Shown here one piece after another: positions 8,238 to 13,289 of a stretch of 13,289 bases of DNA. The DNA is taken from IMG/VR virus record IMGVR_UViG_3300017989_002792. The stretch is one strand, 5' to 3'. Made by a program: the position numbers and the translations under genes. How positions within the stretch are numbered: the stretch's first letter is position 1; every line of letters starts with the position of its first letter. Origin of the DNA: a virus. The notes beneath the pieces were generated by a model. That model was not told where the DNA came from. It saw only the letters and a program-made list of their open reading frames with translations, and made no database searches.

Positions 8238-8975
8238 ATGAACGACAAAAGAATATTAATTACAGGCGATATACATGCCGATTGGCCAAGTCTTAATGGA
8301 CTAATTAATAAAAAAAGGCCAGATATTGTTCTTTGTTGTGGCGATTTTGGTTATTGGCCAGAATTAATAACTTATAGAGATTGGGGGTACAATCAAAAAC
8401 AAATCGAATATGGATCAACTTTTAGAGATGAAAAGAAAATAAAAGTTGGCGATACTAATGCCAAAATTTATTGGGCGCCTGGAAATCATGAGCACTGGTG
8501 GATTCTTGAAAAAGAATTAGGAAGACATGGCAAAGCGCCAATCGAAATGAATCCTAATCTTTATTATTGTCCTATAGGTTCTATTATAAATATAAATGGA
8601 TCGAACATTTTATTTATAGGTGGAGCTGATAGCATAGATAAAAATGCAAGAACTATAGGATTAGATTGGTTTCCAGAAGAGGTTTTAAATCATGCTGATT
8701 TTGAGTTTATACTTAAAAGTATAGGCGATAAAAAAATAGATATTGTAATAAGCCACACTTGTCCAAATGCATTTCCTATGTCAGATTTAACTGGACGATA
8801 TGATAAAAAAGATGATCCAACAAGAGGCATCTTAAACGAAGTATTAAGAATTTATCGACCAAAAAAATGGCGATTTGGGCATTGGCACGATCATAAAAGA
8901 GGAAATGATTATGGATGTGATTGGATGTCATTAGACTATCCAAAACATGGTGGAATTTGGTGGACGTGGTTATGA
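8238..8975 (+). CDS. calcineurin-like metallophosphoesterase (245 aa)
   Basis: Motifs ILITGDIHAD, CCGDFGYW, GNHEHW, HTCP and GHWH match the metallophosphatase (MPP) signature D-x-H...GD...GNHE...H...GH. RBS GGAGA precedes the start. Confidence 0.75.
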   Translation: MNDKRILITGDIHADWPSLNGLINKKRPDIVLCCGDFGYWPELITYRDWGYNQKQIEYGSTFRDEKKIKVGDTNAKIYWAPGNHEHWWILEKELGRHGKAPIEMNPNLYYCPIGSIININGSNILFIGGADSIDKNARTIGLDWFPEEVLNHADFEFILKSIGDKKIDIVISHTCPNAFPMSDLTGRYDKKDDPTRGILNEVLRIYRPKKWRFGHWHDHKRGNDYGCDWMSLDYPKHGGIWWTWL

Positions 8976-9217
8976 GCAATGGAAGAGAAGAAGCTTTAGA
9001 AAATATATTGAAATTTGATGTAGTTGCACCAATAAATCCTGATATGGCAATTGCATATTTTATGGATAATGTTTTTATAGCGGATGGATTATATTGTATA
9101 ATCTATCCACCAAAATTTCCAATACCGATGCGAGACACATCAAGAGAAAATCTTTTTAAAAGATTTTGCGAATTTATGGTCGAAAAAAACACAGAGCAAA
9201 TTGACGAAAATGTCTAG
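8972..9217 (+). CDS. hypothetical protein (81 aa from ATG 8972; ORF track lists the 8921 start)
   Basis: ATGA start/stop overlap with the upstream gene suggests translational coupling at 8972. Stop TAG sits inside the terminator hairpin. Confidence 0.45.
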   Translation: MSNGREEALENILKFDVVAPINPDMAIAYFMDNVFIADGLYCIIYPPKFPIPMRDTSRENLFKRFCEFMVEKNTEQIDENV

Positions 9218-9240
9218 ATTAATTTCTAGACATTTTTTTT
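9211..9240 (+). terminator. rho-independent terminator overlapping the next promoter
   Basis: Hairpin TGTCTAGA-TTAATT-TCTAGACA followed by T8. Confidence 0.65.
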
Positions 9241-9256
9241 ATTAATAGAATATAAT
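9227..9256 (+). promoter_or_regulatory. sigma70-like promoter TAGACA-N18-TATAAT (recurrent GAATATAATTAA motif)
   Basis: -35 TAGACA 9227-9232 (the 3' arm of the terminator stem). -10 TATAAT 9251-9256 within GAATATAATTAAA. Confidence 0.55.
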
Positions 9257-9286
9257 TAAACAAAAGAATTATAAAGGAGGCCCGCC

Positions 9287-11526: not shown

Positions 11527-12156
11527 ATGATAGTTACATTTTCATCAAGCTCACATTCAGGAAAAACTACATTTGCGGAACATATACAAAAATTGTTAGG
11601 CAAAGATAATGTTATTATTTACAATGAAATAATAAGACGTTATGATATCAAAAGTATTGACGATTTAAGAAGAGATCCTAATAGATACTTTAAAATTCAA
11701 AAGGAAATAATTACAGAAAAATATGATCAAGAAATTTGCGCAAGAAAAGATCATCAATTCCAGTTGGGAACTAAAAATAAAATAATTATATTTGATAGAT
11801 CGTTAGCAGATTCTTTTTATTATTACACAAAATATGTAAAAGTTAATCTATTATCTGACGAAAACAAGAAAGAATTTTATGAATTCCAAGATAAAGTATA
11901 TCGTTGGGCAGCAGATTCGTTTGAGTATGTTTATGATAGAATTATATTATTTAACCCAATTCCATTGCCAGAAAAATTAAATGATGGCTTTAGAGAAAAA
12001 GGGTTGAGAGAAAAACAAATGTCAGAATTTCATATGATCAAATTGTATTCATATGGTTTTTGTAAAGATTGGAATAAAATTAAATTTATTGATGTAAAAA
12101 GGGATAATTCATTAATGAATTTTATGAGGCTATTATATGAAACGAATAATTCCTAG
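11527..12156 (+). CDS. P-loop NTPase, nucleotide/nucleoside kinase-like (209 aa)
   Basis: Walker A-like FSSSSHSGKTT, Walker B-like IIIFDRS, and a kinase-like fold pattern of AAA_28/dNK type. Confidence 0.55.
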   Translation: MIVTFSSSSHSGKTTFAEHIQKLLGKDNVIIYNEIIRRYDIKSIDDLRRDPNRYFKIQKEIITEKYDQEICARKDHQFQLGTKNKIIIFDRSLADSFYYYTKYVKVNLLSDENKKEFYEFQDKVYRWAADSFEYVYDRIILFNPIPLPEKLNDGFREKGLREKQMSEFHMIKLYSYGFCKDWNKIKFIDVKRDNSLMNFMRLLYETNNS

Positions 12157-12820
12157 GACATATAAAGAATATAATCAACTAGTAGTAAAAGGAGAAAACT
12201 TTAATAAAGATAATATTACTATTAATATTCATGGTGCTATTGATGTCAATAATAGATCTTTAACAAAGAAATATTTATATAATGCTTTATCGTTTACAAC
12301 AGACAAATTAGCGTCAGATGAAATTCTTAAAGCAATAAAAGGAATTAAAGTAGATGAAGAATTTATGAATAGTCGATGCTATCCTACGGGTTTATTTAAT
12401 ATTGGAAATGTAATGATAGTTGGAATGAATCCAGGCAGGAAAGGTAGAAGTGTTGAAGGTTACCCGTTAAAACCTTCATTTGTTTATCAATCACCAAGTT
12501 TTAATTTAAGAAAAGCATGCGAATACACATTTGGAAACGATATTCCGTATGTCACAAATCTTTGCAAATATGCCACAGTTGATAATAAAGTTTCTGAAAA
12601 ACAATATGAAGAATACGAATTTATATTTCACATGGAAATAAATTATATGAAGCCAAGGTTAATTATAGCATTGGGAAATGATGTATATAATTATATAGAT
12701 AAATATATTTTAACAGAAATACCAGTGATTAAAATAATGCATCCGGCAGGGATATGTTACAATGACATGACAGTTAAAGATTATGTAATACATTTTAGAA
12801 ATAAGGTTAGGCAATCATAA
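12137..12820 (+). CDS. uracil-DNA glycosylase superfamily protein (SMUG-like motifs), 227 aa
   Basis: Motif A VMIVGMNPGRKG (GMNPG as in SMUG-type UDGs). Motif B IMHPAGICY (HP(S/A) motif). Overlaps the upstream gene by 20 nt. Confidence 0.55.
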   Translation: MKRIIPRTYKEYNQLVVKGENFNKDNITINIHGAIDVNNRSLTKKYLYNALSFTTDKLASDEILKAIKGIKVDEEFMNSRCYPTGLFNIGNVMIVGMNPGRKGRSVEGYPLKPSFVYQSPSFNLRKACEYTFGNDIPYVTNLCKYATVDNKVSEKQYEEYEFIFHMEINYMKPRLIIALGNDVYNYIDKYILTEIPVIKIMHPAGICYNDMTVKDYVIHFRNKVRQS

Positions 12821-12930
12821 TGATAGAAAATATGGAAGAAATTTTTGATGACTTTAATAAAATACTTAAATCACAAAAAATAAAATTATATTGTTTTTAT
12901 AGAATAAAAGAAGTTTATATGAAGGAATAA
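12820..12930 (+). CDS. possible small protein (36 aa) with TAATG-coupled start; absent from the ORF track
   Basis: ATG 12820-12822 overlaps the upstream TAA. Translation MIENMEEIFDDFNKILKSQKIKLYCFYRIKEVYMKE. Confidence 0.25.
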   Translation: MIENMEEIFDDFNKILKSQKIKLYCFYRIKEVYMKE

Positions 12931-12932
12931 TC

Positions 12933-13289
12933 ATGAAAAAAATCGGCTTCCTCGGCGCGCCTGGCGTAGGCAAATCAACTTTAGCATCTGGTCTTTTTTA
13001 TGAATTAAAAAAGAAGAAATATGAAGTTGAACTAATTCCTGAACTTGTAAAATTTAAAGTTTTTATGGGCGCAGATAATAGTGAAATTGGTTTCGATATT
13101 CAAAATAGTTTAGAACAAAGAAAACTAGAGAAAATATTTGATGAGCATATAGGGTTAGATTATGTAATATGCGAAAATCCATTGTGGAATGGTTTAATTT
13201 ATTCAACGTTTTATAACAAAGAATACGAAATGAAATTTCTTGAGAAAATAGCAAGAGAGAGTTATTATGATTTTATGTTTTTTATAAAA
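12933..13289 (+). CDS. P-loop ATPase/kinase, AAA_28 / NadR-kinase-like (5' partial, runs off window end)
   Basis: RBS AAGGA 8 nt before ATG 12933. Walker A GAPGVGKST. Motif VICENPLWNGLIYSTFY. No stop before the window end. Confidence 0.65.
   Translation, partial: MKKIGFLGAPGVGKSTLASGLFYELKKKKYEVELIPELVKFKVFMGADNSEIGFDIQNSLEQRKLEKIFDEHIGLDYVICENPLWNGLIYSTFYNKEYEMKFLEKIARESYYDFMFFIK

Follow-up and report, generated by a model that had tools for sequence, protein, structure and literature searches.

A probable phage cytosine-hypermodification cassette with a carbamoyltransferase, a kinase and a UDG-like protein

Introduction

What does a NodU/CmcH-type carbamoyltransferase do in the genome of a large phage, in the company of P-loop kinases and a UDG-superfamily protein? 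The question is raised by a window (the whole stretch of DNA analysed) of 13,289 nt, which a sequence-only reading had tentatively taken to carry a hypermodification module, with a carbamoylated base or sugar as a speculative product. The central part of that proposal, with a carbamoylated pyrimidine as the likely product, has held up. The carbamoyltransferase (CT) is a full-length homolog of a known 5-hydroxymethylcytosine (5hmC) carbamoyltransferase; the chemistry is that of a phage NodU-type enzyme that carbamoylates 5hmC to 5-carbamoyloxymethylcytosine (Yang et al., eLife 2021; PMC8670742). Positions 9287-12820 probably represent a phage cytosine-hypermodification cassette in which the CT carbamoylates 5hmC, with a kinase (kinase 1) and the UDG-like protein in accessory roles. 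The chemistry proposed for the cassette is already known, and the variation lies in the kinase and UDG-like partners around the CT.

Gene content and transcription signals

The genes listed in the earlier reading are present, with Pfam and PHROGs in agreement, and all are co-oriented as claimed, on the + strand from the metallophosphoesterase to the second kinase. They are the metallophosphoesterase (8238-8975; Pfam Metallophos 1.6e-14; phrog_1649, metallo-phosphoesterase, 1.1e-30), the CT of the phage 5hmC carbamoyltransferase family (9287-11053; Carbam_trans_N 1.7e-12, Carbam_trans_C 1.2e-25; phrog_1601, 'Nol-like carbamoyltransferase', 4e-59), kinase 1, a P-loop protein of nucleoside/nucleotide-kinase fold (11527-12156; AAA_28 1.1e-6), the UDG-superfamily protein (12137-12820; Pfam UDG 4.3e-9) and kinase 2 (12933-13289; AAA_28 3.8e-10), which is truncated by the contig end. 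Both kinases match phrog_2107, 'thymidylate kinase'. The UDG-like gene overlaps kinase 1 by 20 nt in a different frame. Small genes that had not been listed, also on the + strand, are orf81 (8972-9217), translationally coupled to the metallophosphoesterase, a frameshifted gene at 11063-11501, and a 36-codon ORF at 12820-12930 without conservation in relatives. The 11063-11501 sequence, which has no homolog in related loci, is probably one membrane-anchored protein broken by a frameshift in an A-rich run (~11094-11111).

The start of the CT is likely ATT at 9287; the mechanical open reading frame begins at TTG 9305. ATT is preferred because the TTG would cut into a conserved N-terminal strand, LLITLGHN, which starts before it, and GGAGG lies 6 nt before the ATT.

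Is the module one operon driven by a shared promoter motif, as had been suggested? Part of this stands. A 15-mer, ATAGAATATAATTAA, is present in exact copies at 4086 and 9245 (upstream of the CT) and in two-mismatch copies at 7013 and 12164, and a count of four matches was reached in 0 of 200 shuffles. The best three sigma-70-like sites (11/12 matches), all intergenic and on the + strand, are at 4068, at 8173 before the phosphoesterase and at 9227 before the CT; the last, TAGACA-18-TATAAT (9227-9259), includes the 15-mer at 9245-9259. The total number of promoter-like sites, however, is not above that of shuffled sequences (77 vs 74 +/- 7.7), and the cassette is not one operon because a terminator-like hairpin on the + strand (9206-9237; 13-pair stem, loop of 6 and a T-rich tail with a T-run) closes the phosphoesterase/orf81 unit and separates it from the CT unit downstream.

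The window makes up the whole of its source contig, which ends at 13289, 2,236 nt past the CT, and no thymidylate synthase (TS) homolog is found within the 13.3 kb window. Logan contig L004 repeats 11960-13289 without a difference and stops at the same end base; it represents the same data and adds no independent extension. A metagenome scan for an extension of the contig showed no relative closer than 46% identity.

The carbamoyltransferase

By Pfam, the CT shows the two-domain NodU/CmcH architecture, with a Kae1-like N domain and a YrdC-like C domain. It aligns with the characterised phage 5hmC carbamoyltransferase over its full length (29% identity over ~585 residues, 243 bits, E 2e-77), and the motifs THHDxHA, DGFGN, AGDQG, MEFGPRALCNT and LINTSFNVHG are common to both. 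Among solved natural-product O-carbamoyltransferases, the best match is NovN, at 82 bits. The Trp of the 'GW' motif found in NovN, GdmN and 7xb6 is missing in the window CT and in the characterised phage enzyme alike. Residues W408, G421 and R423 (TobZ numbering) are reported to be differentially conserved in modified contigs; the EFGPRAL motif of the window CT has its G and R, as seen by motif and not by TobZ position.

In a neighbor-joining tree of CTs, the window protein falls in a different clade from the characterised enzyme. In its own clade a kinase is conserved and a UDG-like partner is present in part; the clade of the characterised enzyme is without both. That enzyme functions without any kinase or UDG-like protein. 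Genes neighbouring the CTs of the window's clade include those for dCMP deaminase, dUTPase and DNA polymerases.

Related loci and a proposed pathway

About 90 related CT loci were compared; neighbour counts refer to 56 non-redundant relatives with enough flanking sequence. A search for TS-like hydroxymethylases, the check proposed with the earlier reading, is positive in the relatives (the window contig ends first): in 55 of the 56 loci a TS homolog lies no more than 5 kb away, on the same strand. Every one of these homologs (98/98) has Asp at the positions of E. coli ThyA L143 and N177, the dCMP-hydroxymethylase signature, and the M6 dUMP hydroxymethylase, used as a control, reads D143/N177 as expected. 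Two TS paralogs are present in many of the loci. Kinase 1 homologs are found in 37/56, and four members of the kinase 1 family that were looked up independently of the CT all lie between a CT and a TS gene. The nearest homologs of the UDG-like protein sit in clusters of CT, kinase, TS and dCMP-deaminase genes. Pfams enriched in cytosine-modified contigs by MetaGPA are Carbam_trans, Thymidylat_synt, AAA_28 and Metallophos.

A pathway can be proposed from these associations. A TS-like dCMP hydroxymethylase, encoded within a few kb in the relatives, would supply 5-hydroxymethyl-dCMP; the TS gene of the window phage most likely lies beyond the contig end. From carbamoyl phosphate and ATP the CT would form a carbamoyl-adenylate and O-carbamoylate the hydroxymethyl group of 5hmC, a reaction shown for the homolog and predicted for the window CT, and the product in phage DNA would be 5-carbamoyloxymethylcytosine. 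Kinase 1 most likely takes 5-hydroxymethyl-dCMP or its carbamoylated form (5cm-dCMP) towards the triphosphate, as its fold and its fixed position between CT and TS suggest. The UDG-like protein may, at low confidence, clear the modified DNA of uracil-type bases (U, 5hmU). In two lineages of relatives carA/carB or carB is found directly upstream of the CT; carbamoyl-phosphate synthetase genes in this position offer indirect support for a carbamoyl phosphate-dependent reaction.

Not every neighbour is supported as a part of the cassette. The metallophosphoesterase and kinase 2 had been placed in the module, but neither has a counterpart in any of the ~90 related CT loci, and the terminator leaves the phosphoesterase in a different transcription unit from the CT. 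Both are neighbouring genes of a kind usual in large phages, and neither is a conserved component of the cassette. The CT loci are likewise without a homolog of orf81, whose place in the cassette is not supported either. Phage homologs of the metallophosphoesterase are generic phosphoesterases of large actinophages, and against the PDB it shows a weak similarity to lariat-debranching enzymes (E 0.003); its Pfam enrichment by MetaGPA may reflect phage lineage. Homologs of kinase 2 are 'thymidylate kinase'-annotated genes of jumbo phages. Its relation to the kinase 1 family reaches a probability of only 60% by hhalign, and as a query in a word-indexed protein search it gave no match. Relatives encode a 206-268-aa protein on the downstream side of the UDG-like gene. 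With motifs that can be matched to those of TS, it is a tentative candidate for a degenerate TS: the hhalign probability is just 20%, a TS HMM found no match in the two members searched with it (L146 and L145), and a PDB profile search was empty.

Kinase 1 and the UDG-like protein

Kinase 1 accompanies the CT as a conserved partner. Its P-loop, DR(S)-type motif and overall fold fit the dNK, TMPK and NadR-kinase class; the best structural match is a nucleoside kinase, the ribosylnicotinamide-kinase domain of NadR, and members of the family also match the dNK and Thymidylate_kin Pfams. The closest kinase folds (the NadR kinase domain and deoxynucleoside kinases) phosphorylate hydroxyl groups. 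Nucleoside and nucleotide acceptors are not separable by the fold, and gene context points to modified dCMP. Other cytosine-hypermodification clusters, too, repeatedly contain TMPK-like 'nucleotide kinases' beside TS homologs (PMC13326640). One relative (L151) additionally encodes a T4-type dNMP kinase, so that calling kinase 1 'the dNMP kinase' may be too simple.

The kinases had also been likened to those of hydroxymethyl-pyrimidine chemistry, and this was not borne out. Neither window kinase matches PF18748, the 5-hmdU DNA kinase family, at E <= 0.1 (vs 7.7e-18 for M6 gp54), and hhalign of the window kinases with 5-hmdU DNA kinase aligns 22 columns, the P-loop only. No window protein has an aGPT-Pplase-type transferase Pfam match. 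The UDG-like protein was considered as an analogue of aGPT-Pplase and rejected, the aGPT-Pplase fold being helix-hairpin-helix and not UDG.

What kind of UDG-like protein stands beside the kinase? It is a member of a small and distinct subfamily that derives from family 4, and carries the motifs GMNPG, KPSF, VTN and HPAG. Motifs for base recognition and catalysis in family 4 and SMUG-type glycosylases appear to be retained: the uracil-recognising Asn (in VTN) and motif B, HP(S/A) in family 4 and HPAG here, are present, and motif A, GE(A/G)PG in family 4, reads GMNPG. The subfamily has a single nearly invariant Cys, the TIGR00758 score is 21.6 bits against a cut-off of 125.3, and there is an extra N-terminal region of ~85 residues. 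Foldseek places family 4 UDG, SMUG1 and UdgX as best matches of an AF2 model, which was built from a five-sequence alignment (pLDDT 61) and used for fold assignment only. Kinase and UDG families were searched at the domain level because fusion proteins join the two.

The UDG-like protein is fused to kinase 1 in 20 of 29 cluster representatives of its subfamily; in the window the two are split. Motif A is GEAPG in all 20 fused relatives and GMNPG in the window protein, as in SMUG1. A second, independent kinase-UDG fusion is gp315 of Bacillus phage G, which has a TMPK-type kinase and adjoins a dCMP-hydroxymethylase-type TS and a glucosyltransferase. A role in uracil removal leaves the frequent fusion with kinase 1 unexplained. 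The kinase-UDG pair is without prior description in the literature searched. Could it represent a new two-domain enzyme of hydroxymethylcytosine-type DNA modification, with a role beyond nucleotide phosphorylation and uracil repair? Such an enzyme might act on hydroxymethylated pyrimidines in DNA as a base-flipping kinase or as an editor, or might couple the synthesis of modified nucleotides to the replisome; the idea is conceivable but doubtful.

Alternative explanations

Does the cassette act on a different acceptor? The D143/D177 pair is also found in TS homologs that are 5-hydroxy-dCMP synthases, so the acceptor could be another hydroxylated cytosine, namely 5-hydroxycytosine (with a flavin-dependent TS homolog); 5-hydroxymethyluracil is a further candidate, and in either case the product would be a carbamate new to DNA. 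The separate clade of the window CT and the paired TS paralogs at many loci are consistent with such a shift, but the characterised enzyme rejects 5hm-dUTP (PMC8670742), and 5hmU is unlikely as acceptor because all neighbouring TS homologs carry the cytosine-specific Asp177. A change of acceptor is rather unlikely, and 5hmC is preferred. It is quite improbable that the kinase-UDG pair works on DNA, whereby the UDG fold would flip the hydroxymethylated base and the kinase phosphorylate the base or an excision product, in parallel with thymidine hypermodification. The fusion in 20/29 clusters, its independent counterpart in gp315, the hydroxyl-phosphorylating activity of the nearest kinase folds and a known precedent that couples a P-loop kinase with a glycosylase-like protein all speak for this. 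However, resemblance to the 5-hmdU DNA kinases stops at the P-loop, the partner in the precedent is of helix-hairpin-helix and not UDG fold, the characterised CT needs no activated substrate (PMC8670742), and a flipped base bound in a UDG pocket would presumably be out of reach of the kinase site, which is a separate one.

Two further explanations detach the genes from DNA modification or from each other. The CT might be an auxiliary metabolic gene acting on a polysaccharide, a Nod-factor-like glycan or a secondary metabolite, as its PHROG category ('moron, auxiliary metabolic gene') and family name imply, and antibiotics are indeed the acceptors of the solved homologs, with cyanophage carbamoyltransferases found in metabolite clusters. 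Yet the CT resembles the DNA-modifying enzyme far more closely (243 vs 82 bits), genes for TS, dCMP deaminase, dUTPase and DNA polymerase accompany the family almost everywhere, and glycosyltransferase or metabolite genes are absent from the window, which makes a non-nucleic-acid acceptor highly improbable. The same low probability applies to NAD or nucleoside salvage, offered earlier as an alternative, in which the AAA_28 kinases would be salvage enzymes of the ribosylnicotinamide- or nucleoside-kinase type, unrelated to the CT. Its sole support is the resemblance of the kinase 1 fold to the NadR domain. Gene context gives none: the window encodes neither an NMN adenylyltransferase nor PnuC nor anything else of NAD metabolism, kinase 1 homologs are always placed between CT and TS genes, and the family's Pfam matches extend to dNK and Thymidylate_kin.

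Significance and comparison with known systems

The base 5-carbamoyloxymethylcytosine is among the newest known in DNA, and was shown with one enzyme from one sewage contig. As the window and its ~90 relatives indicate, the CT family is widespread in large and small phages and nearly always tied to a dCMP-hydroxymethylase-type gene. Across much of the family the partners are a dedicated nucleotide-type kinase, a UDG-like domain that in most cases is fused to this kinase and, in some of the phages, a carbamoyl-phosphate synthetase encoded by the phage itself. These partners bear on the timing of carbamoyl addition, i.e. before or after replication, and constitute candidate enzymes for handling or reading modified cytosines, of relevance to sequencing chemistry and to phage resistance to restriction and CRISPR.

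How does the locus compare with known systems? With the characterised phage 5hmC carbamoyltransferase (PMC8670742) it shares the two-domain architecture, the motifs and the family-wide tie to a dCMP-hydroxymethylase-type TS, but the window CT belongs to the clade with a kinase and partly a UDG-like partner. The solved O-carbamoyltransferases TobZ, NovN and GdmN match the window CT at E 3.7e-22 to 1e-6 and are alike in fold and carbamoyl-adenylate chemistry, whereas their acceptors are small-molecule antibiotics. Family 4 UDG and SMUG1 share the UDG fold and the conserved GxxPG, F, TN and HP elements with the window protein, which, unlike family 4, is without the four-cysteine iron-sulfur cluster motif.

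Thymidine hypermodification clusters with a 5-hmdU DNA kinase and an aGPT-Pplase (PMC8989533) similarly have a P-loop kinase beside or fused to a glycosylase-like protein near a TS-like hydroxymethylase. They differ in kinase family (PF18748) and in the fold of the glycosylase-like partner; in addition, the TS type in the CT loci is cytosine-specific and carbamoyl transfer does not require a phosphorylated intermediate. The T4-type 5hmC pathway (gp42 dCMP hydroxymethylase, gp1 dNMP kinase, gp56 dCTPase and glucosyltransferases) runs in the same order: a TS-like enzyme hydroxymethylates, a nucleotide kinase of the phage phosphorylates, and the hydroxymethyl group is then decorated. The window system, however, would decorate with carbamoyl and not glucose, its kinase is AAA_28/dNK-like and not of the T4 DNMK family, and no dCTPase is present in the window.

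Gene content and limits of the cassette

The window represents approximately one entire metagenome contig (ENA ERZ27256770 k141_1406850), has a G+C content of ~30% and carries all of its genes on the + strand. The sequence-only reading had proposed a DNA-modification module here, and the domain assignments on which it was built are all borne out by Pfam, PHROGs and NCBIfam. The proposed module begins with a metallophosphoesterase (8238-8975) and a small ORF coupled to it (orf81, 8972-9217). Next come the NodU/CmcH carbamoyltransferase (CT), whose mechanical ORF spans 9305-11053, and a short gene with a frameshift (11063-11501). 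Kinase 1, a P-loop kinase, occupies 11527-12156 and shares 20 nt, in a different reading frame, with the gene of a UDG-superfamily protein (UDG-like protein, 12137-12820). An ORF of 36 codons (orf36, 12820-12930) follows, and last is a second P-loop kinase (kinase 2, 12933-13289), truncated by the contig end.

Not all of these belong together. The core of the cassette is CT, kinase 1 and the UDG-like protein, the latter two with putative roles. The metallophosphoesterase and kinase 2, which had been proposed as module members, do not belong to it, nor do orf81, the 11063-11501 gene or orf36: homologs of these five were absent from the related loci, and a terminator-like hairpin (9206-9237) splits the phosphoesterase unit from CT, which is preceded by its own promoter-like site. 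Homologs of the phosphoesterase are generic large-actinophage genes, and a structural search gave no informative relative. Kinase 2, with no counterpart in any CT locus compared, is similar to jumbo-phage genes annotated 'thymidylate kinase'. Within 11063-11501, a 37-codon ORF has a good ribosome-binding site, and a frame open from 11091 (orf101) encodes a transmembrane helix and has no start codon; the two look like one gene with a frameshift in an A-rich run at ~11094-11111, which would stem from a homopolymer error or from programmed slippage.

The shared promoter motif of the earlier proposal is real, but it does not stand ahead of every cassette gene. The 15-mer ATAGAATATAATTAA has exact copies at 4086 and 9245 and two-mismatch copies at 7013 and 12164, and four matches were reached in 0/200 shuffles; the total of sigma-70-like sites across the window shows no excess over chance. 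At 6979-7027, past the vault-like gene, a perfect 9-bp hairpin (6979-6999) that reads as a terminator from either strand precedes GGAGAATATAATTAA, which lies 3 nt ahead of an ATG at 7030.

The vault-like gene (4162-6957) encodes a 931-aa major-vault-protein-like product (Pfam MVP_shoulder, 1.9e-23, and Vault_3), which in the phage collection has full-length homologs (38% identity, E 1e-164) only in LR756500, LR756501 and LR756503, 'uncultured phage' genomes of 462-735 kb. Eight tRNA genes (Trp, Ser, Leu x3, Phe, Arg, Ser) are clustered at 193-3930 on the + strand, several overlapping mechanical ORFs. Together with the kinase 2 homologs, the tRNA cluster and the vault-like protein suggest that the window is part of a large or jumbo phage genome. 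The product of 2305-2757 is RNaseH_like (PF04308, 7.9e-29) and also matches phrog_11311.

The carbamoyltransferase and its predicted acceptor

DNA modification by phage NodU-type enzymes is already established (PMC8670742). The purified CT of a sewage contig turns 5-hydroxymethylcytosine into 5-carbamoyloxymethylcytosine when given carbamoyl phosphate and ATP; it acts on single-stranded DNA, on double-stranded DNA (more weakly) and on 5hm-dCTP, and is inactive on 5m-dCTP and 5hm-dUTP (Yang et al., eLife 2021; PMC8670742). The window CT aligns end to end with this enzyme, as given in the methods of that paper (29% identity, 243 bits, E 2e-77), and all the long conserved motifs are common to both. 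Among solved small-molecule O-carbamoyltransferases the best match is NovN, at 82 bits, with TobZ at E 1e-6.

Where does CT begin? In the alignment the conserved N-terminal strand LLITLGHN starts at 9293, before the TTG at 9305 is reached. None of the codons ATG, GTG and TTG occurs from the in-frame stop at 9272 up to that TTG. An ATT at 9287 sits 6 nt past GGAGG, and the protein likely starts at this non-canonical codon.

The loci compared came from cultured phages (Bacteroides fragilis phages, Acinetobacter phages and Xanthomonas Xp15), 59 IMG/VR contigs and 80 metagenome contigs, which were grouped at a CT identity of 95%, leaving 88 clusters; neighbours were counted in the 56 whose CT is full-length with no less than 3 kb of flank to either side. 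A thymidylate synthase (TS) homolog lies on the same strand within 5 kb of CT in 55 of the 56, a kinase 1 homolog is present in 37, in 29 of which it is no more than 300 nt from CT, and the UDG-like protein is present in five. Residues of the TS homologs were numbered on an E. coli ThyA sequence, checked only at C146, H147, N177, Y94, R166 and D169. All 98 homologs have Asp at the N177 position, the cytosine-specific form, and all 98 have Asp at position 143 (L143 in ThyA), a water-access residue where Asp is typical of hydroxymethylases; Thr replaces H147 in 95/98. The dUMP hydroxymethylase of phage M6, taken as a control, reads D143 with N177. In the MetaGPA table, Pfams enriched among cytosine-modified contigs include Thymidylat_synt, Carbam_trans_C/N, AAA_28 and Metallophos. 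Within the clade of the window CT, genes for dCMP deaminase, dUTPase and DNA polymerases are further neighbours.

No TS gene is present in the window, and the contig stops 2,236 nt past CT. TS is found 1.2-2.7 kb downstream or 1.7 kb upstream in the closest relatives, and ~670 nt downstream of the closest UDG-like homolog (50% identity). The hydroxymethylase gene of this phage most likely lies off the contig.

Some phages appear to supply their own carbamoyl donor. In L157/L158, carA- and carB-like carbamoyl-phosphate synthetase genes (1-4173) are directly upstream of a CT with 45% identity to that of the window and of a kinase-UDG fusion. A second lineage (L045, L110-L112; ~6715-9921) has a carB homolog ending 59 nt ahead of CT; the lineage includes contigs of 168-195 kb, of which at least one is viral. 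The gene following CT in Xp15 (10622-11041), annotated 'hydrolase', has a PRA-PH match (7.1e-9; MazG-like NTP pyrophosphohydrolase); its product is a candidate dCTPase excluding canonical dCTP.

Kinase 1 and the UDG-like protein

Does kinase 1 act on DNA or on nucleotides? It belongs to a family of ~300 metagenomic proteins, all without a name. A 5-hmdU DNA kinase was considered and rejected: neither window kinase matches PF18748, which M6 gp54 matches at 7.7e-18, and hhalign with that family covers the P-loop only. PDB hits of the kinase 1 family profile are a deoxynucleoside kinase (1e-5) and, more weakly, thymidylate kinases (1e-3), and members also match Pfams dNK and Thymidylate_kin. Four members located via the kinase alone all lie between CT and a TS gene, one on a contig that also encodes a T4-type dNMP kinase. 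From these matches and this position we infer a nucleotide kinase dedicated to modified dCMP. Clusters for 5-hydroxycytosine likewise have TMPK-like 'nucleotide kinases' beside TS homologs (PMC13326640).

The UDG-like protein keeps KPSF, the uracil-recognising Asn (TN) and HP(A/S/T); its motif A reads GMNPG, and GEAPG in most relatives. The four-cysteine cluster typical of family 4 is missing, and the score is far under that family's cut-off. A low-confidence structure model matches family 4 UDG, SMUG1 and UdgX. Kinase and UDG-like domain form a single polypeptide in several relatives. HMMER run in full against 1.84 billion representatives yields a sharply set apart subfamily of 29 clusters, at whose edge the score falls from 146 to 84 bits; 20 of the 29 clusters are fusions (407-504 aa) with an N-terminal kinase-1-type domain, P-loop intact.

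A family of 206-268-aa proteins is encoded right after the gene for the UDG-like or kinase-UDG protein (L157 7299-7919; L156 1469-2275; L146 11397-12080; L145 799-1212; L155 1452-1775). Its motifs SRRxVxRFANS, D(V/I)SCL and RASDxxxxxFxD align with TS motifs near R126/R127, C146 and R166/D169/N177; hhalign gives a probability of just 20% against TS, and there are no Pfam or PDB matches.

Comparison with known modification systems

Bacillus phage G gp315 (L064, NC_023719, 3253-8989 region) is an independent fusion of Thymidylate_kin and UDG. Its neighbours are the TS homolog gp319, with the dCMP-hydroxymethylase signature D143, T147 and D177, dCMP deaminase gp317 and alpha-glucosyltransferase gp313. 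From this combination we predict that phage G DNA contains glucosylated hydroxymethylcytosine. The independent fusion in this setting ties the kinase-UDG pair to hydroxymethylcytosine-type pathways generally. No description of the pair was found in the literature searched, and the widespread fusion is the most novel lead from the cassette. The cassette is a variant of the known phage 5-hydroxymethylcytosine carbamoylation pathway, with 5-hydroxymethylcytosine as the predicted acceptor base.
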